Source: a virus. Taken from it: a stretch of DNA of 64,000 nt. A program made the position numbers and the translations under genes. The notes below the pieces were generated by a model. That model made no database searches. It saw only the letters and a program-made list of their open reading frames with translations, and was not told where the DNA came from. The stretch lies in the IMG/VR virus record IMGVR_UViG_3300045988_129382, positions 1 to 64,000 of that record. The stretch is one strand, 5' to 3'. Of the stretch, positions 8,680-52,177 are shown in pieces (the stretch's first letter is position 1; every line of letters starts with the position of its first letter).

Positions 8680-10926
8680 ATGAAGTCTTTATTAATAATG
8701 AGAGGTTGTCCTGGAAGTGGGAAGACAACTCTTTTAAAAGATTTAGGATTAGATATTTATTCTTTAAGTAGTGATAGATTACGATTGATGTACAGTTCAC
8801 CTGTTTTAAATGAAGAGGGTAATTATACGATTAGTCAAGATTGCAATAGTGATGTATTTGATACATTGTATAAAATGTTAGAATATCGTATGTCTAATGG
8901 TGAGTTTACTATTATTGATGCAACGCATTGCTCCTCGACTAAAACTGTACATAAACAGATTCAGGAGTATCGTAGATTAGCTAAACGATACAACTATAGA
9001 ATCTATCAGTATGATATGACTACTGATATACTTAGTATAGCTAGACAGAATGAGTATCGTAGGGGTACATATTCTTTTGTGCCACATCATATTGTTGATA
9101 AGATGCGTAGGGTTATGGAAGATACTCCTAAGTTGCATAGAGATATCTCTAAGTTAGACTCTATTGAAGATTTTATTTCTTCTTATAATACAGACTATTT
9201 ATGTGATGCTAATGTGTATAGTAATGTTAAAGTGGTTGGTGACGTTCATTCATGTAATACTGTTCTCAAAAATGCTTTATCTGATTTTGATACTAATACA
9301 TTATATGTGTTTGTTGGGGATTACTTTGACAGGGGTATTGAGCATTACGATACATTAAAGACTATTCAAGATTTATCTAAGCGTAAAAATGTTATATTGT
9401 TAGAGGGTAACCATGAATCACATTGGATTCGTTATTCACATAGTGAGAGTGGTGATGATTTAGGTTACAAGCGTTTCAGAGAAACAACTTTAAAAGATTG
9501 GCTACTACATTATGATAATGAATCAGATTTAAAGAAAGAGTTACGTATATTATATCGTAAACTACATTCTTGTTATTTCTTTAAGTGTGGTAATATTAGG
9601 TATATGGTTACACATGCTGGTTTGACAAAGTTCCCTGAAAATGCGTTATTGTTATCATCTACTCAATGTATTAAGGGTGTAGGTGGTTATGATTTTGAGG
9701 TTTCACTAGAGTATACTAAACAACAGCGTAGTGGTACTGAAGTTCAAGTTTTTGGTCATAGGGGTGTATCTTCTTCTAAAGGTTTCAGTTATTCTTTAGA
9801 GGGTAAAGTTGAATTTGGTGGTCATCTTAAAGTTCTTAATATTGATAAAAGTGGTCATGAAGTTGTTGAATACAAAAACTATGTATACAATAAGAATTAT
9901 CTAGATGAAGAATTTAAATTTCAACAAGAATTTGGTAAGGTTGTACTAAATACTGATTCCATTGAAGTTAATGTTATAGCTAATTCTAAGTTAGTTAGGG
10001 TTCGTAATTGTGGTGATATGGTTAGTCTTAACTTTACTGAGAAGGCTTTTAGACATAATTTGTGGGATAGTGTTACAATTAAGGCACGTGGGTTATTTGT
10101 TGATAAAATTACAGGTGATGTTAAAGCACGTTCTTATGATAAATTCTTTAATTTAGGTCAGAGAAAAGATTCTAATGAAGAGTTAGATAAACTAGTTTAC
10201 CCTGTCAGGGTTGCTAAGAAAGAGAATGGTTCTTTAGGTATCATTTCTTGGGATAGGCAAAAATGTGAATATATTTTCGCTAGCAAGAATTCTACAATGA
10301 CTGAGCATGCTGGTTATGTTAAAGAAAACTTTGAAATGGTTGACTTCAATATTCAGTATGCATTACGTACAATTTTAATGAAGTATAATTGTTCTGCTGT
10401 ATTTGAGATGATTCACCCTAAAGATGTTCATATCATTAATTATAATAAATCTCACAAACTTTTCTTGTTAGACTTTGTACCTAATAAGTTACATTTAGAT
10501 AATGGTATTCATATTGATTATGAATTTTCTGAGATGTGTAGAAAAGAGTTTAGTAAGATTTATGAAGAAAACCCTATGCTTGCATTTGATGATGTATTTA
10601 AGGTTGTGTGGTCAACAACTGTTTCTGATAGAGATGCTTTAAATGTGTATCTTGAAAAAGCTAAAACATGTGATTTTGAGGGTTATGTATTTACAGATTC
10701 TAGAGGTTATATGACTAAGATTAAGTCTGATTCTTATTTAGAGTGGAAATATTGTAGGACATTATTAGGTCATTATGTTAGCAATAGTGATATAAATACT
10801 AATTCATTAAATGATTTTGAAAAGAGTTTCTACAGTTTCTTGCGTACTCATTTTGTTACTGATTTGAGAGATAAGAATATTTTAGAAGTTAGAGATATGT
10901 ATAATCAGTGGGTGGCTAATAAATGA
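8680..10926 (+). CDS. Pnkp-like RNA-repair fusion with three domains: polynucleotide kinase, metallophosphatase and RNA ligase/adenylyltransferase
   Basis: N-terminal P-loop GCPGSGKTT. Central calcineurin-type motifs GDVHSC, GDYFDRG, GNHE and THAG. C-terminal nucleotidyltransferase motif I KENGS. Confidence 0.8.
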   Translation: MKSLLIMRGCPGSGKTTLLKDLGLDIYSLSSDRLRLMYSSPVLNEEGNYTISQDCNSDVFDTLYKMLEYRMSNGEFTIIDATHCSSTKTVHKQIQEYRRLAKRYNYRIYQYDMTTDILSIARQNEYRRGTYSFVPHHIVDKMRRVMEDTPKLHRDISKLDSIEDFISSYNTDYLCDANVYSNVKVVGDVHSCNTVLKNALSDFDTNTLYVFVGDYFDRGIEHYDTLKTIQDLSKRKNVILLEGNHESHWIRYSHSESGDDLGYKRFRETTLKDWLLHYDNESDLKKELRILYRKLHSCYFFKCGNIRYMVTHAGLTKFPENALLLSSTQCIKGVGGYDFEVSLEYTKQQRSGTEVQVFGHRGVSSSKGFSYSLEGKVEFGGHLKVLNIDKSGHEVVEYKNYVYNKNYLDEEFKFQQEFGKVVLNTDSIEVNVIANSKLVRVRNCGDMVSLNFTEKAFRHNLWDSVTIKARGLFVDKITGDVKARSYDKFFNLGQRKDSNEELDKLVYPVRVAKKENGSLGIISWDRQKCEYIFASKNSTMTEHAGYVKENFEMVDFNIQYALRTILMKYNCSAVFEMIHPKDVHIINYNKSHKLFLLDFVPNKLHLDNGIHIDYEFSEMCRKEFSKIYEENPMLAFDDVFKVVWSTTVSDRDALNVYLEKAKTCDFEGYVFTDSRGYMTKIKSDSYLEWKYCRTLLGHYVSNSDINTNSLNDFEKSFYSFLRTHFVTDLRDKNILEVRDMYNQWVANK

Positions 10927-15111: not shown

Positions 15112-15146
15112 AATGTGCATATCATTTGGTATGCACATTTTTTCTT
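15112..15146 (+). terminator. Intrinsic terminator after the SNF2 gene
   Basis: Stem AATGTGCATA / TATGCACATT followed by a T-run. Confidence 0.7.
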
Positions 15147-15171
15147 TATTTTATTCAGTAAAGGGGTATCA

Positions 15172-17316
15172 ATGTCTGAGGTAAAATCTAGTGATGTATT
15201 TGAGTTAATTAAAGGTAGCATTAGTGAAGATAGTAAGATGTCTTTTGATGTTTCCAATATTGATTTAAGTACTTCAAGCACAGGTGTGGTTGTTATTAAT
15301 TCAAAAGATGACGTATATTTTGCTATAGCTAGGAAGTCAGTTCAAGAATTTAAGGTTGTAGTTGAAAATCAAGAAATTACATCTGATAAGGTTTTGAGTA
15401 GCAATATTCAGTTCATTAGAAATTTTACTAAGGATAAAGCTAGTTATCGTCATGGTGATGATGTATTAGTTAATTTTACAGTTAAGAATACATCTAAAGA
15501 AGATTCACCGATGGTGGTGTCTGTTAATTTGTATAAAATTAATGAGAGAGTTGCTACTGTATATTCTGATTCTAAATTATATCTTAGGGTTAATGAGACT
15601 AAAGATTATTCAGTAACAGTTCCAAATGACATTTTAGAAAGTAATAGTGGTTATTTACTTTCTATTGTTGTTACAGATACGAATAATAACATTGATGTTA
15701 TCAATGAGGGTTTTTCTGTAGAGGATGATTGGACTAAATTCCCTAGATATGGTGTCATTGGTGGCTCAGGTGATGATAATAATTCTATTTTATTGAAGAA
15801 TAAAGATAGATATTTTGATGCATTAGGTGTTATGAGTAATATGAATATCAACTCATATTTCTTCTATGATGCATATAAATCACCTCAAAATCCTTTTCCT
15901 ATCGATAAAGAGCAGTTTAGTCAGGATTGGAATACTTGGAGTCATAGTGTTGTTGATGTAGATATGGTTAAGGGTTTAACTGATTACGTGCATGGTAAGA
16001 ATTCCGTTGCTATGTTGTATAATATGTGTTTTGCACGTTCAGTTGATGAGGGAGAAGTTGTACCTGCTTGGGAATATGCGTACAATCATGATACGTATGG
16101 CTTAAATAAAAAAGGTACACCATATATCAATTATATTGATGGTAAGCCTTTTCAATATTATTATCACCCTATGAGTACGCAGTGGAGAGAGCATATCTCT
16201 AATGTTATGATTGAAGCTATGGAAAATGGTGGTTTTGATGGTTGGCAAGGTGATACTATTGGCGACCGTACTATTAATGCTTATTATGATGCTGATAGTG
16301 ATGCTCATTATATGAGTGATTATTATGGCGATTTTATGGCAGATATGAAAAAGCGTATGCCTAATAAATATTTAACAATTAATGATGTTAATGGTGAACA
16401 TTTAGATAAGTTGTTAGATTCCAATCAAGATGTTATCTATAATGAAATATGGCCGTTTGGTCAATCTGCTTTGGTTATTGATGGTCAATATCGTTCACAG
16501 ACTGAGTATGGTGATTTGAAAGCACGTGTAGATGATGTTAGACGTAAATTAGGTAAATCTCTTATTGTTGGTGCATATATGAATGGGCCAGCTACTGAGT
16601 GGGTTGATGGTAAACGTGTTGCTAAGAATGGGTCTGGTCAGGATTCTATTAATGGTGGTACATACAATCTCCCAGCAGTGTTGTTAACAACAGCTACAAT
16701 TTCTGCCGCTGGTGGTTATCACATGAGTTCTGCCGTATTGGCTAATAGTATGAATAAGGGAGGGTTGGATATTGGTATTTTAGAGAAAGATTACTATCCA
16801 ACTCAGAGCCTACGTACTACAGCTGAGATAACACGTAAGGTGTATGATTATAATCAGTTTGTTACTGCGTATGAAAACATACTACGTGGTGATGGTTTAG
16901 AAGATGATACTACAGAATTAGAAGTTATTAATAGTTTTGGTTTCAAACAAAATTGGGATAGGTATGGTACTAGAGGTTATCAAGTATGGACATGGTCTAA
17001 ACAGGGTAATGGATTTAGAACTGTACAGTTAATCAATTTGTCTGATGTTGTATCTAATTGGAAGAACAAAGAGGGTACATCCATTAATAAACAGCCAACG
17101 TATATGAAAGATTTCATTGTTAAGTATGTTGTAGGTAAGGATAAAGACTTAGCTGAAAGATTATCTAATAGTGTATATGTAACCTCCCCTGATGATTGGT
17201 CTAAATCTGCTATGGTTAAATGTCATGTTGATGTTATCAATGAGGATGGTAATTATGTTTTGAATATTCATGTTTCTGATTTAGATATTTGGGATATGGT
17301 TTATATTAAAGAGTAG
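15172..17316 (+). CDS. Glycoside hydrolase, GH66 (dextranase / cycloisomaltooligosaccharide glucanotransferase)-like. Start moved to ATG 15172.
   Basis: AAAGGGG SD lies before ATG 15172. Layout is an N-terminal beta-sandwich-like region, then DDWTKFPRYGVIGG, INSYFFYDAY and GFDGWQGDTIGD, then a C-terminal beta region (VQLINLSD). The family call comes from remembered GH66 motifs only. Confidence 0.55.
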   Translation: MSEVKSSDVFELIKGSISEDSKMSFDVSNIDLSTSSTGVVVINSKDDVYFAIARKSVQEFKVVVENQEITSDKVLSSNIQFIRNFTKDKASYRHGDDVLVNFTVKNTSKEDSPMVVSVNLYKINERVATVYSDSKLYLRVNETKDYSVTVPNDILESNSGYLLSIVVTDTNNNIDVINEGFSVEDDWTKFPRYGVIGGSGDDNNSILLKNKDRYFDALGVMSNMNINSYFFYDAYKSPQNPFPIDKEQFSQDWNTWSHSVVDVDMVKGLTDYVHGKNSVAMLYNMCFARSVDEGEVVPAWEYAYNHDTYGLNKKGTPYINYIDGKPFQYYYHPMSTQWREHISNVMIEAMENGGFDGWQGDTIGDRTINAYYDADSDAHYMSDYYGDFMADMKKRMPNKYLTINDVNGEHLDKLLDSNQDVIYNEIWPFGQSALVIDGQYRSQTEYGDLKARVDDVRRKLGKSLIVGAYMNGPATEWVDGKRVAKNGSGQDSINGGTYNLPAVLLTTATISAAGGYHMSSAVLANSMNKGGLDIGILEKDYYPTQSLRTTAEITRKVYDYNQFVTAYENILRGDGLEDDTTELEVINSFGFKQNWDRYGTRGYQVWTWSKQGNGFRTVQLINLSDVVSNWKNKEGTSINKQPTYMKDFIVKYVVGKDKDLAERLSNSVYVTSPDDWSKSAMVKCHVDVINEDGNYVLNIHVSDLDIWDMVYIKE

Positions 17317-28543: not shown

Positions 28544-28804
28544 ATGGTTAATGTACAAAAAGAGGCATTAGATATCACAAGGAAAGTATTACAGGATAGT
28601 TGTGGTTATACGAGTGATGTTGTTGCTGAGGATAAGATGTTTGTAGTGTGGTCATGCAAAACATTACAAAATTGGAAAGCTATTGTAGGTGGTACCGATA
28701 TTAAAGAACTAATTGAGGTAACATATAATGGTGATACAAAAGAAGCATATGTAGACGTGTATGATAAGAAATTAAATGTAGCTATTAAGTTAAATGGTGA
28801 GTAA
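28544..28804 (+). CDS. Hypothetical protein, 86 aa
   Basis: ORF track entry. Confidence 0.65.
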   Translation: MVNVQKEALDITRKVLQDSCGYTSDVVAEDKMFVVWSCKTLQNWKAIVGGTDIKELIEVTYNGDTKEAYVDVYDKKLNVAIKLNGE

Positions 28805-28808
28805 CATT

Positions 28809-28997
28809 ATGGAAGAGTTGAAACAAAATTTACTAGAAGAGTTCAACACATTAGAAGAGCGTATTCATAGTCTAATTGCGTTTTTAGATGAAAATAAAGA
28901 GCATGAGGATTATTATGTGTTGTGTAAACAGTTGACTGCTATGGTCGACTATCGTGAGTGTTTACATACACGTATTGTAAAATATAATATTGCGTAG
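28809..28997 (+). CDS. Hypothetical protein. Start moved to ATG 28809.
   Basis: GGTGAG SD 7 nt upstream of ATG 28809. Confidence 0.6.
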   Translation: MEELKQNLLEEFNTLEERIHSLIAFLDENKEHEDYYVLCKQLTAMVDYRECLHTRIVKYNIA

Positions 28998-29017
28998 GTG
29001 TATAAAAGTTTTTTATG

Positions 29018-29061
29018 GGGATAATGCAAATAACTAAGAAAGTTTGTATTATCTCTTTTTT
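29018..29061 (+). terminator. Intrinsic terminator
   Basis: 13-bp stem GGGATAATGCAAA / TTTGTATTATCTC with two G-U pairs, followed by TTTTTT. Confidence 0.7.
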
Positions 29062-29114
29062 ATTATATTTAGTATACTATATGTGTAATAGTGGTTCTTG
29101 TAAAGGAGATAAAA

Positions 29115-29147
29115 ATGAGTTCTAGGTATACTTTTGTATATTTATAA
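29115..29147 (+). CDS. Upstream mini-ORF encoding MSSRYTFVYL
   Basis: Strong SD AAAGGAGATAAAA. An identical peptide is encoded at 42376-42408, and the only difference between the two is a synonymous AGG/AGA change. Confidence 0.5.
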   Translation: MSSRYTFVYL

Positions 29148-29228
29148 CAGAATTTGAAGTATTTCCTTTGGGATATACACATAAGTATTCATTAAGTTGT
29201 TTGTTTTATTCATAAAGGAGATAAAAAA
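29115..29228 (+). promoter_or_regulatory. Copy 1 of a duplicated leader of about 113 nt, consisting of an upstream ORF, a hairpin and the SD of the downstream gene
   Basis: About 90 percent identical to 42376-42487. Hairpin arms are at 29128-29141 and 29173-29188. Confidence 0.6.
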
Positions 29229-29582
29229 ATGATTCCTAGCTATGATTTAATGTATGCAATAAACAAAGAGTGTATATCGTGCCTACAAAGTGTTTGGGGT
29301 AATGACGAGTGTGAATCTTGTACATATGAGGAAATATACTCCAACTTAATGGGAGAGGTATGTGATGGTGCATTAGATATTCCATTGTATACTAAAGAGT
29401 CAAAAGAATATTACAAGACAAATAGGGACGTAAATTTTAATAAGTATATGTTAGATATCTTATTAAAGATGTATGAAAAGAATAAAATGAAGTATACGTA
29501 TAAGGTTGATAATGTAACATATACTTCGGATGAGTTCTACGTACTAGAGAAAGAGTTAGAAAAACTAATAAAGGGGAATTAA
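29229..29582 (+). CDS. Hypothetical Cys-rich protein, 117 aa
   Basis: SD AAAGGAGA; CISC...CESC pattern. Confidence 0.7.
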   Translation: MIPSYDLMYAINKECISCLQSVWGNDECESCTYEEIYSNLMGEVCDGALDIPLYTKESKEYYKTNRDVNFNKYMLDILLKMYEKNKMKYTYKVDNVTYTSDEFYVLEKELEKLIKGN

Positions 29583-29583
29583 G

Positions 29584-30588
29584 ATGAAGAACAATAAGAC
29601 ATATAAAAGATTTGACTCTACTACATATCGTATGGTTATGAGTATGTTAATTTATCTTGAAAGCATTGAGGTTAAGGATATTGTACGACATGTAAATGGT
29701 GATAAGGTACATTATATGGTTAGAGTTGATGGTTATTTTACATCACTAGATAAGGTTAGTAATATCATGAAGAATTTACCTAAGAGATATGTAACAGCAT
29801 TTGATGTATTTATGGGTAAAGTGTATAAACGTGTTATTCAGAGAGTACCTTATTTTGAACGAGATGAGTATTATTCTATTAATTTCTTATTGCAGTATCT
29901 ACAAGATACTAGTTATATCGTACCTATTGGATTAGATGATATTGATTGTATTCGTATGTATGTTGAGAATAAGTATGATAAGGTAGATGCTTTGGAGTTG
30001 GTTAGCAATATGTTAGATAAGAAGTCAGAGGTTGAAGATATTTTAGGTGATACTATGGTTAATAGTAAAAACGATACAATGCTAGATACAGAAGATTTGT
30101 ATAAGAATTTTGCTTATTTATATGAAACACTTATTAGGTTATATGCTAAGGGTTATCGTACAATCGAGGTAGATAGTTCCAATGCATTAGTGTTAGCTGT
30201 TGTTCAGAAGTATACACAGGAAGATTTAGATAGGGGTAGGGTTAGCCGTAAAACATATCTAAATATTACATCTATCTTTAAGTTATTAGGTATTATGGAT
30301 ACTATTAATAGTGGTGTATATGCTATTAGAGATATTCTAGGGTTACCTAGTGAGGGTGATATTGTTTATATGGGTGATAAACCGTATTATTTACATAGTA
30401 TTTCTTTTAATAGTGTTGGTACACAATATTTCTTATATCCTAATCATTTGAATAAAGAAATGTATGAGTTACTTGGTGATACGAAGTTAGAGATGACATA
30501 TAAAGTACGTATGGCTAAGAAGGATACTACATGCAATATGTTTGAAGATAGCTATCAAGATAAGTGGAATGCATTTATAGGAGGTTAA
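29584..30588 (+). CDS. Hypothetical protein, 334 aa
   Basis: ORF track entry; tightly coupled to its neighbours. Confidence 0.75.
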   Translation: MKNNKTYKRFDSTTYRMVMSMLIYLESIEVKDIVRHVNGDKVHYMVRVDGYFTSLDKVSNIMKNLPKRYVTAFDVFMGKVYKRVIQRVPYFERDEYYSINFLLQYLQDTSYIVPIGLDDIDCIRMYVENKYDKVDALELVSNMLDKKSEVEDILGDTMVNSKNDTMLDTEDLYKNFAYLYETLIRLYAKGYRTIEVDSSNALVLAVVQKYTQEDLDRGRVSRKTYLNITSIFKLLGIMDTINSGVYAIRDILGLPSEGDIVYMGDKPYYLHSISFNSVGTQYFLYPNHLNKEMYELLGDTKLEMTYKVRMAKKDTTCNMFEDSYQDKWNAFIGG

Positions 30589-32942
30589 TGATGGTAACAC
30601 AATATTTTACAACTGATGTTATTACAGCAGAAGAGTATATTGGTTATGTACGTATGGTTTTTCAACTACAATCTGCGATTAATATGGTGGGTTTAGATGG
30701 TGGTATTCAAGTAGTTAATAATAAATTACGTTTCTATGATGCTGAAGACGAAGATATTACATCTGAGCATAAAGACTTGAAAAAGCTGGGTGTAGATACT
30801 AATCTTCTTGTTAAATTTAGTAGAGCTATTTCTGAGTGTATTGTGCGTTTAGATACAACTGTACAGGAGTTGTATAATACAGTATGTCATTCTGTTGTTA
30901 ATGATTATGGTAGTATAGCTAGATATTATCGTGCCAATGAAGATAAAAACTTAGCACCTAGCTTTGTGTATTTACGTGAGTTCGATAATCAGGATGAATC
31001 TGATAAAGTTAAATTATTGTACGAATATCAGTATTTGTATGATTATATTAATAATCTTTGTAATATGAATACTAATAGAGGTATGGATGATACTATTATG
31101 ACACAGTATGATGTTGATAGGGATTGTGTTAATTTTGTCATAGAACATACTAGTATAGATGCAGTTACTCCTAATACTATTGTTAGGGACAATATAGCTA
31201 TTAGATTATTACCTACAGTTGTGTTTAGTGGTTCTCATAATGTAAAAGTTAGGGATGTGTTGAATAACATTAATACAGTTATTCGATATTTAATTAGGTT
31301 ACATGCCGAACCATTTAAAGTTGCTTATGATGGTTTAAGTCCTAAGTCTTTTGATAAGGTAGGGTTAAAACAGATTAATTATGTTACAGAGGGTAATGGT
31401 TTTGTAGCATTTGGTGATAATGTATTTTCTGTGTATATTGATAGTGATAGAGTTAAACATTTAGTCAATCAATTAAATTTTGTGCATAAAGTCGACTGTT
31501 TTAATAAGGCTATTGAAGGTCATAAGTATCTATTAAATTTTCCTATCATTGATAATTATGTGACAGTGGCTAGTGCAATACAGTCTTATTTACGTTATCA
31601 GTATGAAAGCGTTATGGGTTCTAGTGGTTATAGTAAGTACACGCCATATGTTTGTTTGTTGTTATCTGTGACTAGTGTGAGTTCTGTTGGGTATGCACAT
31701 ATTCATCAGAGTGTTAATATGCATTTAATTCATTATCATAGTTTTATGGTTGATACAGGTAACAGTGATAGATTAGATATGATGTTGTCTTATATCGATT
31801 TTTGTAAAGATAACTATAATTCTGATTTTACGTGGGACAATGGTAGACATGTTATGGTAGTTCATCATAAGCATAAAGAAGATGAAGTTCTTTCATTGCA
31901 TAAATATATTGATGACAACTCTATTGGTTTTAATTTAGATGTAGATGATGTATTAGATTTACTAAAACTATCTAGGGGTTTAGTTAATGGTTTCTATAAT
32001 ACTTTAAATGCAGATAAACATGTTGTATTTATTGATGCTTTGAATGGGTTTAGAATGATTTCAGATATTGCTAAATCTAAAGACGGTACATACATTACAT
32101 TAGATTATGAGATTGATAAGTATCTTAATTGCAATACTAATTATATGGGTACTATTAATAGTGACTCTTTATTAACATGTTCTGATATGGTGTTTCCTTT
32201 AGATAGTAAATATTGGTATGTTAAAGATGTAAACAACTATAAGCCTTTAGTGTCTATAGTTGAGAAACGATATAAAGGTATGGAAGTGGTATTACGACTT
32301 GTCACTAATATGTTATTTACTATCTTTTACGAGATTAATGCTAAGGATATTAAAACAGTATCTATTGGTGTAGAGGATTTCAAAGATTATAGTAAGTTAT
32401 CGTTCATTGTTAAGACATATGATGGTAGGGTTGAGACATATCCTTTACTTATTAATGATACATTTAGTTACGCCGTGTATAGTCTATTTCATGAAGATAG
32501 TGGGTATCAGATTTATGATGCTACATTAAAGGAAGTATATGATATCCTATCTGAAGTCATGGATATGATGGTTTCTAGTTTTAATTTCATTGATTTTGAC
32601 GAGGATATTTTTAATGTGGTTGATAATTTACGGAAGTTATCTGTAATAGTTAATTCTTGTGATAAGAAAGAGGGAGAAAAAATGAAAGTAGTACATACTA
32701 AGGAAACAAAATTAGTACGTTCTAGTGAATCTAGAAATCTTATGTTAGCTAAAGATTTAGCATTAGAGTTTATTGATAGTGGTTATGATGTGATTATGCG
32801 TGATGGTGATGATTTAGTAGTATATTCTAATACTGATACATCAATGCAAGAATATGTACCTAAGTCTTTACATAAGGTATTTTATGATGTAGATAAGTTA
32901 GATTTGTTGCCATTATCTTATTACGTGTATATGTGTAAATAA
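30588..32942 (+). CDS. Giant paralog A, about 784 aa, unknown function
   Basis: AGGAGG SD upstream. The C-terminal module SGYDVIMRDGDDLVVYS...LHKVFYDVDKLDLLPLSYYVY matches paralog B. Confidence 0.8.
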   Translation: MMVTQYFTTDVITAEEYIGYVRMVFQLQSAINMVGLDGGIQVVNNKLRFYDAEDEDITSEHKDLKKLGVDTNLLVKFSRAISECIVRLDTTVQELYNTVCHSVVNDYGSIARYYRANEDKNLAPSFVYLREFDNQDESDKVKLLYEYQYLYDYINNLCNMNTNRGMDDTIMTQYDVDRDCVNFVIEHTSIDAVTPNTIVRDNIAIRLLPTVVFSGSHNVKVRDVLNNINTVIRYLIRLHAEPFKVAYDGLSPKSFDKVGLKQINYVTEGNGFVAFGDNVFSVYIDSDRVKHLVNQLNFVHKVDCFNKAIEGHKYLLNFPIIDNYVTVASAIQSYLRYQYESVMGSSGYSKYTPYVCLLLSVTSVSSVGYAHIHQSVNMHLIHYHSFMVDTGNSDRLDMMLSYIDFCKDNYNSDFTWDNGRHVMVVHHKHKEDEVLSLHKYIDDNSIGFNLDVDDVLDLLKLSRGLVNGFYNTLNADKHVVFIDALNGFRMISDIAKSKDGTYITLDYEIDKYLNCNTNYMGTINSDSLLTCSDMVFPLDSKYWYVKDVNNYKPLVSIVEKRYKGMEVVLRLVTNMLFTIFYEINAKDIKTVSIGVEDFKDYSKLSFIVKTYDGRVETYPLLINDTFSYAVYSLFHEDSGYQIYDATLKEVYDILSEVMDMMVSSFNFIDFDEDIFNVVDNLRKLSVIVNSCDKKEGEKMKVVHTKETKLVRSSESRNLMLAKDLALEFIDSGYDVIMRDGDDLVVYSNTDTSMQEYVPKSLHKVFYDVDKLDLLPLSYYVYMCK

Positions 32943-32961
32943 TTGAAAGGTGGATTAGGTT

Positions 32962-35274
32962 ATGATATACAATACAGAAGAGATACGCTTAACACCAGAG
33001 GATTATGTAAGATGCATTGAGTTGTTTTATACGTTAAAAGCCCGTGGTAATCGTCATGGTTATGATTCTAAAATCACTTCTATTGAGGAGATGGGAATAG
33101 ACTTTAATGGTGCTTTCTTTAATTTTGATTTAAGTAGTGATATAGTTGAGCAGTTTGATATGTTATCTAATATGACAATTAAGACTGTGTTAGATAAATT
33201 ACGCTTTATCATGACTCATGCTATCTATAGCTTGTATGAAGTACAGGAGTTATTGAAGCAGAATAAAACAGCATATCGATTGTGTCCTAATTTCACTCTT
33301 AATGCATATTTAGAAGGAAATGTATTTAAGAATGTTCTTAACTATCTATTAGAGTGTAATAGATTGTATAATTACTTTGTAGATGGTGATTATACTAATT
33401 GTTGTATTCGATATGTACATGATGATTTTAAAAACCCATTTCATATGTACAATAATAAGGGTGAGGATGTTCCAATGACATCTCCTATTATTCAACACGT
33501 AGCATTTACATCTAGAAAAGAAATAGCTGTACATGAGGTTATTGAGAATATTCATGCTGTTATGTTTATGTTGTCTAAACTACATCTTGATAAACTTAAA
33601 ACACTACGTAATATATATCAAGATGAATTAGAGGGTGTTAGCAATGGGTATCAGACTCATGTACGTTACAATGATACGAGAGATGTAGGATTGATTAATA
33701 CATTGTATATCAATTTACCTAAAGAGATTAAGAGTACAGATGTGGAGCATATCAATACTGTTAGATTGATTAGGGATGTGGTTGATGCAATTACTATTGG
33801 TGTAACTTGTAATTATTCTTGTGAGAAAGATAAGATAACTGTGTTTGATATCGTAAGTGCTATGGTATGTCATTCAGATACATTGTTACGTGATACATAT
33901 GGTAATGGGTATACAAATTATAGTGCAACTACTAAAGTATTTTTAGATAAAATGGGTTGCAATGGACTTAGTAAGCATATCTCACAGGCTATGATGTTGT
34001 ATATTATTTATTACTTTAGATACAAAATTAAGAATGATACATATCTTAGGTTAGAGCGGTTGAAACGTGCATTAGAGTTTAAAAATGGTACATTTGATAC
34101 TGATGTAACATGTAAAGATGGTCATATTTTAATTCTTAATCGTAGATATCGTGAGAGAGAAGAATTGATAGGGACTATTATTAATTTTAATACGTTACCA
34201 GTTAAAGAGTCCGACTATACTACTATTATTCCTAGTGTATTATGCATGATGGTCGATGTGCTTAGGGTAGTAGGTGCTATATGGTATCATCATGCTAGAT
34301 TTACTACTCCTATGCATATGGTTCAGCTTATGTGTGAATTAAAGTACGAGAATTATGATAATCTATTTTGCGAGTATTATACAAGTAGTGATACGTTTAA
34401 ATTAAAGCCAGATACATATTGTACTAATAGTGATGACGATATACATATTAATTGGTATCATTATGGGAATACAGTATTACCTACATATGGTACATATGAT
34501 ATAAATACTATCTTAAAAGACACAGTATTTGTTAATAGTGGATATCTCACTGAGGCTAGAATGGGTTTAATCACTTTGTTGAAAGTGGTTGACGATACAC
34601 TAAAAGATGATACTAAAGAGGTTGATAGTTTAGAGTTACGATATAATATGTCTGACTATAATTACAATATGGAGTTTCATATTACATTTACAGATGGTGA
34701 GACAGTAGTTAGACATACAGAGTTTAACCTAGCTGATTTCTATTATCTATATGGGTTATTATTATATTGTGAGAGTGTTGGTTGGAAATCTTCTTTATTT
34801 AATTATAAGATGGATATCTACTCTTTTAAGACAACAATTAAAGACATGGCTTATAGAATTAATGCTGTTGCTAAAGAATTCTATACATTTAATGGTGATT
34901 TAATCGACAATGATGAGTATAGTATGTTGGAGTCTGTTATGAGTCATGCTAAGGGGTATAAAAAGTCTTTGGGTTCTAGTCAAGTTGTAAGGGAAGATAA
35001 AGAGGTTAAAGAAGTGGATACAGAAGTAGTTGACCCTGTTGTTGAGGTATTAACTAAGTATAGTGATGAAGTTGATGTCAAATATATAGCTAGGGTATTA
35101 TCTAATGAGTTCATGTTGAGTGGATATGATTATATCGTTGTAAAAGACGATAAGATGAAAGTATACTCTACAGATGGTAGTAAGTGTCAGGTCATTGCCA
35201 AACCTTTACATAGATTCTTCTATAATGCTGATACGATAGATAAATTACCATTGTTGTATTATTTAATTGATTAG
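32962..35274 (+). CDS. Giant paralog B, 770 aa, unknown function
   Basis: C-terminal SGYDYIVVKDDKMKVYS...LHRFFYNADTIDKLPLLYYLI; AAAGGTGGA SD upstream. Confidence 0.8.
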   Translation: MIYNTEEIRLTPEDYVRCIELFYTLKARGNRHGYDSKITSIEEMGIDFNGAFFNFDLSSDIVEQFDMLSNMTIKTVLDKLRFIMTHAIYSLYEVQELLKQNKTAYRLCPNFTLNAYLEGNVFKNVLNYLLECNRLYNYFVDGDYTNCCIRYVHDDFKNPFHMYNNKGEDVPMTSPIIQHVAFTSRKEIAVHEVIENIHAVMFMLSKLHLDKLKTLRNIYQDELEGVSNGYQTHVRYNDTRDVGLINTLYINLPKEIKSTDVEHINTVRLIRDVVDAITIGVTCNYSCEKDKITVFDIVSAMVCHSDTLLRDTYGNGYTNYSATTKVFLDKMGCNGLSKHISQAMMLYIIYYFRYKIKNDTYLRLERLKRALEFKNGTFDTDVTCKDGHILILNRRYREREELIGTIINFNTLPVKESDYTTIIPSVLCMMVDVLRVVGAIWYHHARFTTPMHMVQLMCELKYENYDNLFCEYYTSSDTFKLKPDTYCTNSDDDIHINWYHYGNTVLPTYGTYDINTILKDTVFVNSGYLTEARMGLITLLKVVDDTLKDDTKEVDSLELRYNMSDYNYNMEFHITFTDGETVVRHTEFNLADFYYLYGLLLYCESVGWKSSLFNYKMDIYSFKTTIKDMAYRINAVAKEFYTFNGDLIDNDEYSMLESVMSHAKGYKKSLGSSQVVREDKEVKEVDTEVVDPVVEVLTKYSDEVDVKYIARVLSNEFMLSGYDYIVVKDDKMKVYSTDGSKCQVIAKPLHRFFYNADTIDKLPLLYYLID

Positions 35275-35281
35275 GTGTGCT

Positions 35282-35509
35282 ATGGATGGTGTTAATGCTA
35301 TATTAAATTATGCATATGGTGTGTATTCTATACTAGGGATTTCATTATATGTATTCATTGTATTGTTGATAAGTGTTGTGAGTGGTATTAGTAAGTCATA
35401 TCAGTTAGATGAGTTTTGTAAAGTATATGCTAGGGTGTCTATACTGTTATCATTAGCATTTGTTGTTATCGTGTCTATTATTAATACCGTATCATTTATA
35501 TTAGAGTAG
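35282..35509 (+). CDS. Small membrane protein with two TM segments. Start moved to ATG 35282.
   Basis: AGGTG SD 5 nt upstream; hydrophobic segments. Confidence 0.6.
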   Translation: MDGVNAILNYAYGVYSILGISLYVFIVLLISVVSGISKSYQLDEFCKVYARVSILLSLAFVVIVSIINTVSFILE

Positions 35510-35526
35510 CATTATGGGGGGAGTGT

Positions 35527-35718
35527 ATGGACAGTATTTCTACAAGTGTATTAGATGTATTACAGCGTTTAGGGATTGAATATATCAGACGAGATGAAAG
35601 TAATAATTACTATATGGTAACAGATGGTGGTGAAAAGATTTCATGTGATGAATTCTTTAGGGTTGTTTGTATGCATGTGTTACAGGGTAGTGAAGAGATG
35701 TATGTAGATAAGAAATAG
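35527..35718 (+). CDS. Hypothetical protein, 63 aa
   Basis: GGGGGGAG SD upstream. Confidence 0.6.
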   Translation: MDSISTSVLDVLQRLGIEYIRRDESNNYYMVTDGGEKISCDEFFRVVCMHVLQGSEEMYVDKK

Positions 35719-35723
35719 TTTAA

Positions 35724-35762
35724 AGAGGTAGTTAAAAGAGGTAGTTAAAAGAGGTAGTTAAA
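35724..35762 (+). repeat. 13-bp unit AGAGGTAGTTAAA repeated three times in tandem; the last copy forms the left arm of the terminator
   Basis: Copies at 35724-35736, 35737-35749 and 35750-35762. Confidence 0.95.
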
Positions 35763-35777
35763 ACCTACCTCTTTTTT
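35750..35777 (+). terminator. Intrinsic terminator
   Basis: Stem AGAGGTAG / CTACCTCT followed by TTTTTT. Confidence 0.75.
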
Positions 35778-35786
35778 ATTTAATAC

Positions 35787-35815
35787 TTTACAATACTTTA
35801 CACCTATGTTATACT
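35787..35815 (+). promoter_or_regulatory. Sigma-A-type promoter: TTTACA, 17-nt spacer, TATACT
   Basis: Read directly. Confidence 0.65.
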
Positions 35816-38977: not shown

Positions 38978-41296
38978 ATGAGAAATGTAATATATTCGTG
39001 TTTATCTAAGTCAGACCCTTATTATGTGGATTATCTTAGAATCTTTGAAGAGGAAGCTGATAATTATAAGAAACAATTTAAGATTGATGGTGTACTTAGT
39101 GATGTAGAACGTAAATTCATGGACTTTATTATAAAGTCGTATGAGGTAAGTGGTGAGACTCCTAGCTTAGATTTGTTTGTTAAAATGTTTAGTGAGTATC
39201 CTGTAGAGGATGATTTACGTGTAGCAGAAGAGATTGGTATAAACGATTTTAGGGTGTATATTTTTAACTTAATTGATAAGAGGGTTAATAAGTATATTGC
39301 TAATCGGTTAGATGAGTTAAATGCTAAGGTAAAGAGTGATGGTATTACAGATGATATTGCACAAGAGTTTACTAAGTTAACATCATTGTCTAATCGTAAT
39401 AAAGCTAAGGATATCAATATTGAAATAGATTCTAAGCAAGAGTATGATAATAAGAAGTTACGACCTGTTGGTTTAGTTACAGGTATACCTGAGATTGATG
39501 ATAAGATAGGTGGTATGAGTCCTGGCACTGTTACTACGATTGCTGGTTTTACTTCTCAATACAAGTGTGTATCAGAAAATGAACGTGTGTATACTAATAG
39601 AGGTCTTTTAACAATGAAAGAGATTTACAATATTGGTGTACATAGTGATTTGATGATACAGTCAGAATTTGGTATGCGTAAACTTGTAGCAGTACATGAT
39701 GAGGGTGTTAAGAATTCATATATCATTTATATAGGTGGTATTCCTATTGAAACATCTCCTATACATAGATTTAGGGTTTTAACTGATAATGGTTTAGAGT
39801 GGGTTGAAGCACAAAATCTTAAATGTGGTGATAGAGTTGTACAGTCATTGAAGAAATGTACACATGATGGTTATCGTGGTAATGAGTCTTATTGGGTAGG
39901 AAAGGCTAAGTTAATTGCTAAGACACGAGAATGTTTTGATGATACTTTATTTACTGAAAGTTTAAATTGTTGGAAGGCTTTTATCAGTGAGTTATTTAGA
40001 CATATAGGTTATGTAATTAAGGGTGGAAAAACCTTTATGTATTTTCTTAATGATAAGAAAGCATATTCTGTAAGTCGTTTATTATCAGCAATAGGGATTT
40101 CTACTGTTTTTGTAAATAGTAAGTTATTTATTAAAGGTTCAGTGTCATTACATCATTTTATTAATGTAGTTGGTGCTGATACATATAGTGAAGTTGCTAA
40201 CAATTTATCTTTATCTGAAATGCATGATGAAGATTTGGGTAACAGTGAATTTATTCCTATCTCTAAAGATGATATCTATGAGTTCTTTGGTTCTGAGTTA
40301 ACATGGAATACTGTTACAGATATTGAACAGTCTGAGTGCTATATGTATGATTTGACAGTTGATGGTTCTCCTACATATTGTTTAAATGGGTATGTAACAC
40401 ATAATACAACCATGTCGTTGAATATTGCACATCTTAACGCTTATGAGCTAGGGTATAATATTTGTTATTTATCACTAGAGACTCCAAAGGAAGATATTAA
40501 TTGGAACTTGTTATCATGTCATAGTTATAGTACTAAATTCCAACGATATAACTTTGTATCACATGCTAAGATGCGATGGGGTACGATGACAGATGATGAG
40601 GAAGATTTTATTTTTAATGAAGTAGAACCTGATTTAAAGAATGATTATATTGATGATGAGGGTAATACAAGAAAACGTGGTAAGGTTATTATTTTAGATG
40701 AGTCTGATTTCAAGACTTTCTCTTTTGGTGAGATTTCTAGTGTTATAGAGAAAGTAGACGATAAGTTAGGTGGTAAGCTTGATTGTGTTATCGTAGATTA
40801 TATTCAGTTATGTAAGTTTAGTGGTCAGGGTGTTACGTATGATGCTAACTCACAGATTAATAGTTATGTGACATTCTTTAGACGTTTAGCACAAAATTTC
40901 AAGAAAGAGATTAAGGAAGATGGTACTGAGGAAGTACGTCAGTTAACAATGATATTGTTAGCACAGATTAATCGTAGTTCTTGGCAAAAAGCAAGTAGGA
41001 ATGATGGTAGATATGATATTACATGTTTAGCAGATGCGAATGAGTTAGAACGTGGTAGTGCTAGGGTATTTACTACTTATACATCAGAGGATTTGAAAGC
41101 TAGAAAATCTGCACAAGTACAAATACTTAAAAATCGTGCTGGTCAGACAATGTATGACCCAGTAACTGTGTATGCTGATGGTGAGGCATATGTGTTTATG
41201 TCTGAGGATGGTATGAATAGTAGTTTTGGTGGTGATGGTCTAGCTAGTGTTGAAAGTGCATTCGCTAGTATGGACGATTCATTTGATTTCTTATAA
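38978..41296 (+). CDS. dnaB: DnaB-family replicative helicase precursor containing an intein
   Basis: Extein motifs are AGFTSQYK/TTMSLNIA (Walker A region), IVDYIQL, LAQINRS and ILKNRAGQT. A 280-aa insertion is bounded by Cys and His-Asn. Confidence 0.85.
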   Translation: MRNVIYSCLSKSDPYYVDYLRIFEEEADNYKKQFKIDGVLSDVERKFMDFIIKSYEVSGETPSLDLFVKMFSEYPVEDDLRVAEEIGINDFRVYIFNLIDKRVNKYIANRLDELNAKVKSDGITDDIAQEFTKLTSLSNRNKAKDINIEIDSKQEYDNKKLRPVGLVTGIPEIDDKIGGMSPGTVTTIAGFTSQYKCVSENERVYTNRGLLTMKEIYNIGVHSDLMIQSEFGMRKLVAVHDEGVKNSYIIYIGGIPIETSPIHRFRVLTDNGLEWVEAQNLKCGDRVVQSLKKCTHDGYRGNESYWVGKAKLIAKTRECFDDTLFTESLNCWKAFISELFRHIGYVIKGGKTFMYFLNDKKAYSVSRLLSAIGISTVFVNSKLFIKGSVSLHHFINVVGADTYSEVANNLSLSEMHDEDLGNSEFIPISKDDIYEFFGSELTWNTVTDIEQSECYMYDLTVDGSPTYCLNGYVTHNTTMSLNIAHLNAYELGYNICYLSLETPKEDINWNLLSCHSYSTKFQRYNFVSHAKMRWGTMTDDEEDFIFNEVEPDLKNDYIDDEGNTRKRGKVIILDESDFKTFSFGEISSVIEKVDDKLGGKLDCVIVDYIQLCKFSGQGVTYDANSQINSYVTFFRRLAQNFKKEIKEDGTEEVRQLTMILLAQINRSSWQKASRNDGRYDITCLADANELERGSARVFTTYTSEDLKARKSAQVQILKNRAGQTMYDPVTVYADGEAYVFMSEDGMNSSFGGDGLASVESAFASMDDSFDFL
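39566..40405 (+). mobile_element. Intein, 280 aa, inserted in the helicase P-loop; contains a degenerate LAGLIDADG-like endonuclease region
   Basis: Starts at Cys197 (CVSENERVYT). Block B is ETSPIH. Blocks F/G are YMYDLTVDG...GYVTHN, followed by Thr at the +1 position. The middle region includes WKAFISELFRHIGYV and SRLLSAIGIS. Confidence 0.8.
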
Positions 41297-41585: not shown

Positions 41586-42386
41586 ATGGGACAATTAGAT
41601 AAATTAACTAAAAGCTACGAGCAACATATTATTAAATGTAGAGTAGAGGGTGATAGGGCAATTCTTGCCGTATTATCAGATGTGCATCAAGGTTTAAATG
41701 ATAGAAAGTATTTACAAGATACTGTTAAATTTCTATTATCATTAGGTGATAGGTGTAAAGTGATTCTTGGTGGTGATTGTACCAATACAACAACTAAGAA
41801 CTCAAAAGGTAATGTACTTGAAGAGTGGTGTAGTGGTAGTGAGCAGATTTACACTTTAGTAGATGATATTAGACCTTTATATGAAAGTGGACAGCTTATT
41901 GGTATTGTAGAGGGTAATCACCCTAAACGTGCATATAATGATGCGTATATTACTATTGAAGAGATGATAGCTAGTCTGTTGGGGGATAAATCATTGTATA
42001 AGGGTTGTATGGGTATTGTTTACTTTAATGTAAACGATAATCTATATGTACATCAAATTTTGCATAAACATCGTTCTACTGAAGGTGCATATGATTTCTT
42101 TAATGCTGATGTAAATTGGTTTGAGCATAAACATAAGCCTATGACTAGAGCAAGGGTTAAGATTGAACACAATAAGTTTGTTAAAAAACCAGTAGCACGT
42201 CAAGTGTGGGATATTTATCAATCTAGTTTTCAAGTATTCCCTGATTATGCTAAGAGTGCTGGTTATAAACCTAGTGTGAGTGGATATTACTTGTGTGAAA
42301 TGAGTGGTAATAAGCATAATCGAATTGCTACACCGTATTTTGATAGTGATTTTAGGAATTTAATTAAGAATGGATATGAGTTCTAG
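41586..42386 (+). CDS. Metallophosphoesterase, second copy in the window
   Basis: Motifs LSDVHQG, GGDCTN and EGNHP. Confidence 0.65.
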   Translation: MGQLDKLTKSYEQHIIKCRVEGDRAILAVLSDVHQGLNDRKYLQDTVKFLLSLGDRCKVILGGDCTNTTTKNSKGNVLEEWCSGSEQIYTLVDDIRPLYESGQLIGIVEGNHPKRAYNDAYITIEEMIASLLGDKSLYKGCMGIVYFNVNDNLYVHQILHKHRSTEGAYDFFNADVNWFEHKHKPMTRARVKIEHNKFVKKPVARQVWDIYQSSFQVFPDYAKSAGYKPSVSGYYLCEMSGNKHNRIATPYFDSDFRNLIKNGYEF

Positions 42387-42487
42387 ATATACTTTTGTAT
42401 ATTTATAACAGAATTTAATGTATTTTCCCTGGGATATACAAATAAGTATTCGTTAAGGAGTTTGTTTTATTCATAAAAGGAGATATT
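42376..42487 (+). promoter_or_regulatory. Copy 2 of the duplicated leader; includes the same mini-ORF MSSRYTFVYL at 42376-42408
   Basis: About 90 percent identical to 29115-29228. The mini-ORF start overlaps the end of gene 41586-42386. Confidence 0.6.
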
Positions 42488-50392: not shown

Positions 50393-52177
50393 ATGGCTAC
50401 ACTAACAATGTTAAGTCCTGGTGTATACATGAATGAGGTTGACAAAAGTCAATATACTACAGACTCCTCTACTTGTATTATTGGTATGGTGGGTGGTGCT
50501 AGGTTCGGTCCAGTTGGTGTTCCTACACTTATCTCTTCACAACAAGAGTTGATTAAAACTTTTGGTGAGCCTGTTGAGGGTGAGTATGGTTTGTATAGTG
50601 CATTAATGGCACTAACACATGCCAGTCAAGTTATCTATACACGTGTTGTACGTGGTGGTACTAAAGCTACATCAGGTAAAATCGGTACTGATAAAGTTCT
50701 TTATCGTTCTGCTGTAATTGGTGAGGCTAGTAATGGTCTTAAAATCATTCAGTCTGCTTTGACTGGTGGTAAATTCAGTGTGACTATTAAAGATGCACAG
50801 GATGTAGAGAAAGAAAAGTTTGAAGATTTAACTTTGACTTCCTCAGAAGAAAACTTTGTAGAAGCTGTAATTAATGCTAAATCAAAATTGATTCGTGTTG
50901 AGTTACAATCTACAGGTGATGTATCTGCAAAAGAGTTTGTGTTGGGAGATGCTGTAAAAGGCGGAAACACTGGTTCTAATGCACATGCCGGTAAAAAGGG
51001 TACAAATAAAGTACTCTTAGAGTCAAAATACTTTGATTCTAAATTAAATGGGTGTTCTGCTATTTTCAGTGCTATTGATGAGTTTACTCAAACATTTAAT
51101 GTAAGCATTGTTGATGAAAATGGTAATGTTGTTGAGCAATTCAGTACATTATCTTTAGACCCTAAATCTCCACGATTTGTTGAGACTATTATTAATAATG
51201 GCTCTATTCGTGTTAATGCTAAAGTAGATACAGATACATCTGTTAACTATACTGAAGATACATTAATCTTTAGTGGTGGTGATGATGGTATCTTAGGCAT
51301 TACTGCTAGTGACATCATTGGTGATGTTTCTGGTGGTGGTTTACAAAGTTTCTCTAACCCAGAAACAGTTACTATCGATGTATTAACTGCTAGTGGTTGG
51401 AGTGATGCTAGTGTTATTAAGGCTGGTTTACATATTGTTGAAAACCGTGCTGATTCTATCTTTATCGTAGACCCACCATTCGGTATGGGTGTACAGGAGA
51501 TGGTTAATTGGTCAAATGGTAAGGGTTCATATACTAATCAAAATGGTCTTGATACTTCTTATGGTGCATTGTATTGGCCGTGGTTACAAATTAGCGATAG
51601 TTTCACTAATAAAAACATTTGGCTACCACCTAGTGGTTTCGTAGCTGGTCAGTATGCATATAATGATAAGGTAGGTTTCCCTTGGTTAGCACCTGCTGGC
51701 TTGAATCGTGGTAGGATTACTAAAGCTATTAATACAGAGTATTCACCTACACAAGGTGAACGTGATGCTTTGTATGGTCATAGGAATGTTGTAAACTGTA
51801 TCACAAACTTTATCGGTCAAGGTATTGTTATCTGGGGTAACAAAACACTTCAACGTCAACCAACTGCATTGGACAGGGTTAATGTTCGTAGGTTAATGAG
51901 TTTCTTAGAACGCAGCATTGCTATGAAGTCTAGGTACTTTGTATTCGAGCAAAACTATGATGCTACTTGGGAGCGTTGGAAAACTCTTATCGAGCCAGTT
52001 TTGATTAATGCTAAAAATAATGGTGGTTTATATGATTATAAAATTGTGTTGGAAGCTACAGCACAAGATTATGAAAACAACCGTATGCCTATCAGTATTT
52101 ACGTTAAACCAATTAAAGCCGCTGAGTTCATTAGTTTGACTTTCAACATAATGAATTATAGTGCTAGTTTTAACTAA
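50393..52177 (+). CDS. Contractile tail sheath protein
   Basis: N-terminal LSPGVYMNEVD and C-terminal WGNKTLQ...ALDRVNVRRL are typical of the sheath family; 594 aa. Confidence 0.9.
   Translation: MATLTMLSPGVYMNEVDKSQYTTDSSTCIIGMVGGARFGPVGVPTLISSQQELIKTFGEPVEGEYGLYSALMALTHASQVIYTRVVRGGTKATSGKIGTDKVLYRSAVIGEASNGLKIIQSALTGGKFSVTIKDAQDVEKEKFEDLTLTSSEENFVEAVINAKSKLIRVELQSTGDVSAKEFVLGDAVKGGNTGSNAHAGKKGTNKVLLESKYFDSKLNGCSAIFSAIDEFTQTFNVSIVDENGNVVEQFSTLSLDPKSPRFVETIINNGSIRVNAKVDTDTSVNYTEDTLIFSGGDDGILGITASDIIGDVSGGGLQSFSNPETVTIDVLTASGWSDASVIKAGLHIVENRADSIFIVDPPFGMGVQEMVNWSNGKGSYTNQNGLDTSYGALYWPWLQISDSFTNKNIWLPPSGFVAGQYAYNDKVGFPWLAPAGLNRGRITKAINTEYSPTQGERDALYGHRNVVNCITNFIGQGIVIWGNKTLQRQPTALDRVNVRRLMSFLERSIAMKSRYFVFEQNYDATWERWKTLIEPVLINAKNNGGLYDYKIVLEATAQDYENNRMPISIYVKPIKAAEFISLTFNIMNYSASFN

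Follow-up and report, generated by a model that had tools for sequence, protein, structure and literature searches.

The first 64,000 nucleotides (nt) of the virus record IMGVR_UViG_3300045988_129382 in IMG/VR, called the window here, contain a six-gene unit on the + strand (29229-35718) that is flanked by intrinsic terminators on both sides and is largely made up of two adjacent giant genes, whose products are designated A and B. The unit starts with a gene for a protein of 117 amino acids (aa; 29229-29582), followed by a gene for a 334-aa protein (29584-30588), by A (30588-32942; 784 aa, counted from the ATG that overlaps the preceding stop codon), by B (32962-35274; 770 aa), by a gene for a 75-aa protein with two hydrophobic spans, taken as transmembrane (TM) segments (35282-35509), and by a gene for a 63-aa protein (35527-35718), all of them on the + strand. 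An earlier reading of this DNA, referred to as the original prediction, had described a terminator-bounded, co-directional and tightly packed operon of six genes, and the open reading frames (ORFs) and both terminators were located where it had put them. The spacing between the genes ranges from -1 to 19 nt: the 334-aa gene and A overlap by one position (-1) and the other gaps measure 1, 19, 7 and 17 nt. The stop codon of the 334-aa gene and the start codon of A are fused as TAATG, with an AGGAGG in the final codons of the 334-aa gene as the ribosome-binding site for A, and each of the remaining gaps holds a purine-rich ribosome-binding site. Since terminators flank the unit and its genes overlap or lie at most 19 nt apart, the six genes form, as predicted from this layout, a co-transcribed and translationally coupled module.

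The upstream terminator (29017-29061, + strand) is composed of a hairpin at 29017-29056, with 15 base pairs (bp) including two G-U pairs, and a T run; it folds with a free energy of -15.3 kcal/mol (z-score -5.4), closes the preceding transcription unit, and its sequence is kept in alignments with close relatives and with the distant lineages L013 and L016. The downstream terminator (35747-35781, + strand) has an 11-bp hairpin (35747-35775) followed by a T run, and it is kept in all relatives aligned. What had been seen as a triple-repeat terminator at this end is a tandem array of 3.7 copies of a 13-nt unit (35716-35763, + strand; Tandem Repeats Finder score 89), which copies the 5' arm of the terminator and runs into its hairpin. 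The copy number of this array is a strain polymorphism, with one copy in most relatives and two in L002.

The sequences show paralogy of A and B along the entire length of the two proteins, which is more than had been claimed for them. A (90.5 kDa, net charge about -33) and B (90.1 kDa, net charge about -25) are 46% identical over the C-terminal 61 aa in BLASTP (expectation value, E, 9e-11), which also finds a colinear central match (E 3e-6), and the alignments of their orthologs, when compared by hhalign, match over 707 columns with a probability of 99.9% and an E of 7.6e-32, or of 6.6e-36 when richer alignments are used. The multiple alignment of both paralogs shows colinear conserved blocks from the N-terminal helix to the C-terminus, and the N-terminal pattern noted earlier in the two proteins is part of it, aligning with an invariant tyrosine (Y17). 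The C-terminal module (hereafter C-module; residues 715-784 in A and 706-769 in B) is 46-55% identical between the paralogs, as against about 18% over the whole proteins. Its homology had been recognized in the original prediction, and this stands, while the length of about 90 aa attributed to it has to be reduced to some 60-70 aa.

An AlphaFold2 model of A, built on an alignment of 23 sequences covering both paralogs, has a mean predicted local distance difference test score (pLDDT) of 78.6 and a predicted template modelling score (pTM) of 0.78, with 614 of the 784 residues at a pLDDT of at least 70. The modelled protein is a multi-domain, mixed alpha/beta protein (49% helix, 14% strand) with several units made of a three-stranded beta-meander and a helix, a disordered loop at 504-541, and a flexible linker (693-717) leading into the C-module, which is predicted as a compact alpha-beta-beta-beta-alpha fold (715-784). 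The model of B is weaker (pLDDT 64, pTM 0.43), with the same order of secondary structure elements as in A; taken together, the two models have 43-49% helix and 14-16% strand, and the linker ahead of the C-module has a pLDDT below 50 in both. Five beta-beta-beta-alpha units can be traced in the model of A, but comparison of its segments with each other by hhalign shows no sequence repeat, and internal repeats were rejected. Among the 23 columns that are invariant across the A/B family, 22 are hydrophobic, aromatic or glycine/alanine, the exception being Q374. The polar positions conserved in at least 90% of the members are D179, N227, S329, H371, Q374, E433 and D526, and a HIHQ motif (H371-I-H373-Q374) is kept in all A lineages, with HISQ in its place in B.

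No recognizable domain had been reported for these proteins, and this holds for roughly 2,140 aa in profile, PDB sequence and structure searches. For all six proteins, Pfam, PHROGs, PADLOC and NCBIfam returned no match above the noise level, PADLOC-DB gave no match on A, B or the 334-aa protein, Pfam gave none for any of 23 divergent A/B members, and PDB sequence and profile searches gave none for the operon proteins tested, which included the 334-aa protein and the 23 divergent members. A PADLOC match to Cas1b (E 0.0037), which covers 18 residues of an 80-aa reading of the 75-aa ORF from a TTG start at 35267, is noise. No homolog of A, B, the 334-aa protein or the 117-aa protein was detectable by tblastn in 50,697 GenBank phage records, and no A/B relative was found in the GTDB species-representative genomes. 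A HMMER search over 1.84 billion representatives at 50% identity returned 17 proteins, all of them members of the A/B family or fragments of such members, including the A-like lineages P0242, P0244 and P0246 (40%, 37% and 31% identity, respectively) and the B-like lineage P0254. Moreover, the homologs group into 280 clusters for A and 151 for B at 90% identity, on contigs of about 200 kb; since hundreds of such clusters exist and the ratios of nonsynonymous to synonymous substitution rates (dN/dS) given below are low, the ORFs of the operon are real genes.

Structure comparison gave a similar picture. Foldseek found no match in PDB for A (best E 0.87) or B (best E 0.23), and in BFVD the significant matches of A were confined to A/B-family orthologs from the metagenomic 'Myoviridae sp. 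ctdNl2'. One of these, A0A8S5QFX2, is an A-like ortholog (E 4.9e-43, TM-score 0.77-0.81) and the other, A0A8S5QGH9, is B-like (E 1.5e-19); both are true family members (sequence cluster P0266), 27% and 20% identical to A, respectively, over the structural alignment. Weak recurrent Foldseek matches to SPO1 Acb4, a tandem dsRBD, a tandem GAF and an RNase H domain have probabilities of at most 0.3, with TM-scores of at most 0.39 on a small target, and were dismissed as noise. Chimallin, which builds the shell of the jumbo-phage nucleus and has solved structures in PDB, is absent among the PDB matches listed, none of which reached an E below 0.2. Known families to which the proteins might belong, split RNA polymerases and virion proteins among them, were looked for and not found: for virion proteins there was no PHROG match of the structural category and no significant match in PDB or BFVD, the matches to T7 gp15 and to a P1 head protein having probabilities of 0.05 or less. 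A lectin-like C-module was considered on account of a marginal PDB profile match of 24 residues to a bulb-type (monocot mannose-binding) lectin (E 0.018), which is a likeness at the motif level only; the module reads R-D-G-D-D-L-V-V-Y against QxDxNxVxY, with the key aspartate replaced by glycine, and its fold is not a beta-prism II. The predicted multi-domain alpha/beta architecture of the A/B family matches no solved or predicted viral structure, and by exclusion the family appears to be new, being neither a member nor a variant of any kind tested.

The suggestion that all six proteins might belong to one expanded family did not survive profile comparison, since hhalign gave probabilities of at most 2.4% for every pair except A and B; the pairs compared were the 63-, 117-, 75- and 334-aa proteins with the C-module, the 334-aa protein with A or B, and the ORFs at the left end of the window (550-4989) with A, B and the 334- and 117-aa proteins. 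These left-end ORFs, to which the operon had also been linked, fall into two separate pairs of paralogs, 550/1683 (27% identity, E 1.6e-14) and 2994/4033 (27%, E 7e-8); neither Pfam nor PHROGs gave a match for them, and they are unrelated to A and B.

The operon module was found only in a single clade of myoviruses, with genomes of about 200 kb, that is known from metagenomes, and it holds the same genomic position in four lineages of this clade. Gene order is identical in 12 IMG/VR loci of the window's own clade and also in the P0242 lineage, where the products measure 112, 345, 813, 787, 75 and 62 aa. In the P0246 lineage the order is a 117-like gene, its 106-aa paralog, a 480-aa form of the 334-aa protein, a B-like gene, a 152-aa insert, an A-like gene, the two-TM gene and a 63-like gene; the L013 and L014 contigs (A-like P0246, the lineage of cluster P0266) therefore place B before A, while the window has A and then B. 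The P0244 lineage encodes, in place of B, a 175-aa 'mini-B' (L017:3618-4145), in which residues 16-126 of B are joined directly to the C-module (710-770), and a similar internal deletion is found in P0251 (440 aa), which is made of the N-terminal half of the B-like P0254 and the C-module. Internal loss is thus recurrent in B, with the N-terminal part and the C-module being kept, and A is of full length in every lineage.

The rates at which these proteins diverge differ strongly. Between the window and the P0246 lineage, identity is 83% for the DnaB helicase, 89% for the exonuclease, 82% for the 117-aa protein and 83% for the two-TM protein, as compared with 29% for A, 32% for the 334-aa protein and at most 32% for B, over parts only. 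When close relatives are compared, A and B have dN/dS values of 0.22 and 0.18, respectively, and the 334-aa protein has one of 0.29; the small operon proteins range from 0.06 (the 117-aa protein) to 0.18, and the value of DnaB is 0.10. A, B and the 334-aa protein are therefore constrained yet fast-evolving, and their 117-aa and two-TM partners are slow.

Homologs of the small operon proteins outside this phage clade were not found in a scan of IMG/VR. The 117-aa protein is acidic, soluble and slow-evolving (82% identity to the distant lineage, dN/dS 0.06). It had been called Cys-rich, which is correct for this strain, with five cysteines, but only C15 is conserved among relatives, so that richness in cysteine is not a trait of the family; a zinc-binding protein was likewise rejected, the CxxC...CxxC pattern being strain-specific. 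The 334-aa protein is soluble and fast-evolving, and its L013 form, which is 32% identical, carries an additional N-terminal extension of 180 aa. A BFVD match of its 477-aa ortholog (E 0.04, probability 0.77) raised the possibility of a domain shared with A, for which sequence profiles give no support, and the idea was set aside. Hydropathy of the 75-aa protein shows the two TM spans that had been proposed for it (windows 10-42 and 45-75), and the protein is slow-evolving, with 83-84% identity to L013 over its first 50 residues or so. The 63-aa protein is acidic and soluble, with the conserved core LGIEYI...YYMVTDxGExIS..EFF. Its LGIEYI..YYMVTD resembles the GYDVI..LVVYS of the C-module by eye; with richer alignments hhalign gives only P 0.08, and a free copy of the C-module was rejected.

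The window is part of a large myovirus, with related contigs of 195-216 kb. Contigs with close homologs come from metagenomes in ENA, Logan, JGI and IMG/VR, two of them being labelled 'MAG TPA: Bacteriophage sp.' in NCBI nr, and the NCBI assembly GCA_003555725.1 carries the module on a contig of 201 kb. Some of the IMG/VR contig identifiers resemble those of Human Microbiome Project samples. By the tail sheath protein, the nearest cultured phages (34-43% identity) are Streptococcus phage vB_SagM-GXN1, Bacillus phages SP-15 and vB_BceM-HSE3, and Listeria phage LIS04. Replication and accessory genes surround the operon, which belongs to the non-structural arm and is placed 11 kb upstream of the first recognizable tail-module genes. 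The window also encodes a SNF2 helicase, a DnaB helicase with an intein (38978-41296; Intein_splicing domain between residues ~249 and 476), the tail sheath (50393-52177), the baseplate hub (54213-55160) and a tape-measure protein with a lysozyme domain (55450-59124). The module takes up some 6.5 kb of a genome of about 200 kb, or approximately 3%, and what had been called an unusually large investment is accordingly notable, but not extreme.

Just before the upstream terminator, a 67-aa gene (28794-28997) matches PF21825 (crAss001_48 / 'Sequestin'; E 9.7e-11), a family that has been shown experimentally to sponge 3'cADPR, the signal molecule of Thoeris (bioRxiv 10.1101/2025.07.12.664507). The gene that precedes it (28544-28804) encodes a DUF6275 protein (E 7.8e-23). 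Both genes are missing in the P0246 lineage (L013), and the operon is retained there.

Directly after the upstream terminator lies a -10-like element, TATACTATA (29073-29081, + strand), which is conserved among aligned relatives and is, on sequence grounds, a candidate promoter of the operon. The same nonamer recurs at promoter-like sites at 35810 and 45297, and also at 17515. The strong, early-type promoter-like consensus of this phage consists of AAAAC-TTTACA, 17 nt and (TG)TATACT or TATAAT, often just past a terminator, and about nine such sites are found in the window (2923, 5590, 7441, 17540, 20110, 21590, 35787, 43635 and 45274); the one at 35787-35815 (+ strand, TTTACA-N17-TGnTATACT) stands directly after the downstream terminator as the strong promoter of the next unit. 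The region upstream of the operon is without the AAAAC-TTTACA -35 box, with only the TATACTATA part being present, and a -10-type element alone is also found upstream of tail genes at 46286, 50219 and 54059.

Between the TATACTATA element and the first start codon, the 5' leader of the operon holds an insertion of 102 nt (29115-29216, + strand), a 90% identical copy of 42376-42477, which duplicates a ribosome-binding site and a start-like ATG (a remnant ORF of 10 codons) and has a predicted fold with a z-score of -4.3. It is present only in this strain, the site being empty in L001, L002, L006-L008, L010, L011 and L013. The other copy (42376-42477) extends from the exonuclease gene, whose end it covers, over the leader of the gene at 42488. 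A mobile leader cassette and a recombination scar are possible origins of this direct repeat.

The reading that is tentatively preferred, at a probability of roughly 0.3, makes A and B the parts of a hetero-oligomeric scaffold or adaptor that is tethered by the two-TM protein and acts at the interface between phage and host inside the infected cell. According to it, A and B would assemble with each other rather than work as a conventional enzyme, the shared C-module would serve for docking, either between A and B or to a small partner common to both, the assembly would be anchored at the cytoplasmic membrane by the 75-aa two-TM protein, and the complex would act in host takeover, counter-defence or exclusion, in a role like that of the T4 rII proteins without homology to them. 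A docking role of the C-module is suggested by its high identity between A and B, by the disordered linker and by its retention in mini-B and P0251; the near-absence of polar residues from the invariant columns, which are almost all hydrophobic, aromatic or glycine/alanine, and the lack of a conserved nucleotide-binding or catalytic motif argue that the proteins are probably not enzymes; the link to the membrane follows from the conserved two-TM protein in the operon; and a role at the host interface is consistent with the fast divergence of A, B and the 334-aa protein, with the upstream Sequestin-family gene and with the location in the non-structural arm.

Several points weigh against the scaffold or adaptor. 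Both the heteromerization of A and B and their tethering are read from gene adjacency alone. The module is present in every lineage examined, which would fit a core function better than a dispensable anti-defence gene, and known counter-defence proteins are mostly small. The polar positions conserved in at least 90% of the members leave room for an unrecognized active site, and the -10-type element without a -35 box would allow expression in the middle or late phase, and thereby a role in the virion. A bolder version of the scaffold, which is doubtful, would make A and B a new class of self-assembling, membrane-tethered heteromeric scaffold, be it a shield, a compartment wall or a decoy platform, that protects or organizes the infection against host immunity. 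Its protomers would be linked by the tethered C-module docking onto an N-terminal subdomain, which would explain why mini-B keeps exactly these two parts.

A different explanation, possible though not favoured, places A and B in the virion, as internal head ('inner body') or ejected proteins that are present in many copies and delivered with the DNA, with the C-module as a capsid-targeting or docking signal. The two proteins are large, acidic (net charge -25 to -33), paralogous, fast-evolving and always present, their operon follows a terminator with a -10-type element only, an arrangement shared by the regions ahead of the tail genes at 46286, 50219 and 54059, and a tethered, conserved end module could well serve for targeting. 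On the other hand, the operon sits amid replication and accessory genes, 11 kb away from the first recognizable tail-module genes, it encodes a two-TM protein, which would be unusual for head contents, and the searches described above brought up neither a structural PHROG nor a virion fold in PDB or BFVD. That A is instead an enzyme of an unrecognized class, with a substrate such as DNA, nucleotides or the cell envelope, that B is its catalytically degenerate partner and that the small proteins are accessory subunits is quite unlikely. In its favour, HIHQ is retained in all A lineages against HISQ in B, and D179, N227, E433 and D526 are conserved in at least 90% of the members. The tolerance of B, as opposed to the always full-length A, for large internal deletions would be expected if activity resided only in A, and the odd base composition of the window (C 10%, skew +0.3 to +0.6) makes an unusual DNA chemistry conceivable. 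Nevertheless, this last connection is pure speculation, hydrophobic residues predominate strongly among the invariant ones, no catalytic signature such as a P-loop, a Rossmann motif or a metal-binding triad is present, and neither Pfam, NCBIfam nor PDB gave a match for any of the 23 divergent members, nor Foldseek an enzyme fold at an E below 0.2.

Tail-fibre or other receptor-binding proteins, with chaperones encoded by the small downstream genes, would account for a layout in which large, fast-evolving paralogs are followed by small conserved proteins, as in known cassettes of fibres and their chaperones. This is nonetheless very improbable, given that the models are globular and 43-49% helical, with a pTM of 0.78 for the A monomer, instead of beta-rich and trimeric, that a long distance separates the operon from the tail and baseplate genes (from ~50.4 kb on), and that no similarity to fibres was found in PDB or BFVD. 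The chance that A and B each supply one half of a highly divergent two-barrel multisubunit RNA polymerase, like the non-virion polymerases of phiKZ and AR9, is close to negligible. Two large adjacent paralogs in a large phage, a DFDED string of the DxDxD type at residues 669-673 of A and a faint Pfam match of the 63-aa protein to RNA_pol_Rpb1_4 (E 0.18) pointed in this direction; however, DxDxD strings occur in A only at 175 and 669 and in B not at all, the one at 669 is not kept in the orthologs P0242 and P0244 (FGYAEG and TNISS) or P0246, the Foldseek matches in PDB include a single polymerase with a probability of 0.05, and no polymerase was matched in Pfam or PHROG. Many sigma-70-like promoter matches in the window are, moreover, compatible with use of the host polymerase. 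With DFDED unconserved and no fold match, the split polymerase was rejected.

A and B have some similarities to known phage systems. In T4, rIIA and rIIB are membrane-associated proteins needed to escape Rex-type exclusion, and they are like A and B in being adjacent, large or mid-sized, non-structural proteins that have no recognizable catalytic function and are conserved across a clade of myoviruses. The likeness is one of role only: the two-TM protein of the operon is the ground for presuming that A and B associate with the membrane, and a counter-defence gene lies next to the operon. A, B and the 334-aa protein have no rII match beyond noise in PHROG or Pfam at E up to 1, and no BFVD match falls outside the A/B family; the paralogy of A and B, furthermore, has no counterpart between rIIA and rIIB. 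The inner-body paralogs of phiKZ and the internal proteins of T4 offer an analogy for packaged proteins, and phiKZ-like inner-body or internal head families share with A and B the expenditure of several kb on large, acidic, paralogous, fast-evolving orphans in a large myovirus. They differ in that no BFVD or PDB similarity connects them to A and B, which are encoded in the replication and accessory arm together with a membrane protein. The split beta/beta' RNA polymerases of phiKZ and AR9 are also encoded by two large adjacent genes, with products that escape simple sequence searches, but A and B have no conserved DxDxD loop and, in Foldseek, no match to a double-psi beta-barrel or a polymerase, and they are colinear paralogs of equal length, unlike beta and beta'.

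Large orphan proteins are common in big phages, though A and B stand out among them in being conserved, under selection, confidently modelled with an unmatched architecture, and present in a recurrent clade. This clade of phages of about 200 kb is found again and again across public metagenomes, where complete contigs of 195-216 kb are common, and no isolate with A/B is included in the GenBank records searched. Since every lineage examined keeps the 6.5-kb module and the structure of its two 90-kDa proteins is confidently predicted and unmatched in PDB and among predicted viral structures, it represents well-defined viral dark matter and not a gap in annotation. If A and B do form a new complex that organizes infection or resists immunity, they would bring a new protein architecture and possibly a new mechanism, and if they prove to be virion components, they would still be a new structural family. 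The C-module, the HIxQ motif and the natural mini-B variants provide handles for experiments.

Other features were observed elsewhere in the window. A single 748-aa fusion of polynucleotide kinase, phosphoesterase and T4-type RNA ligase (8680-10926; phrog_8238, E 1e-158) is of the all-in-one RNA repair type used against host anticodon nucleases. The 733-aa protein at 15115-17316, which is unmatched in PHROGs, contains a GH66 dextranase domain over its full length (E 1.5e-107); for a phage, a dextran hydrolase of this kind would be in keeping with a biofilm rich in dextran, dental plaque for example. From the dextranase and the sheath matches, oral Firmicutes, above all Streptococcus, might be guessed as hosts. 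The 190-aa ORF at 37606-38178 matches positions 192-380 of a DNA methyltransferase PHROG of 458 positions (E 1.7e-56), has no Pfam match, and may be a split or truncated methyltransferase. The window has 31% G+C, with 10.2% C and 21.2% G, and its GC skew lies between +0.3 and +0.6 in all 2-kb bins; the credible genes all run on the + strand, and third codon positions are only 5-11% C. Mutational bias, modified bases and an asymmetry of replication or transcription are candidate causes of this strand bias. At the start of the window (1-70), the 14-nt unit GAGTTAATTGATTA is repeated five times in tandem, followed by shorter GGTAGGTAATA repeats at about 195-230, and these repeats may mark a genome end, an origin or a regulatory array.

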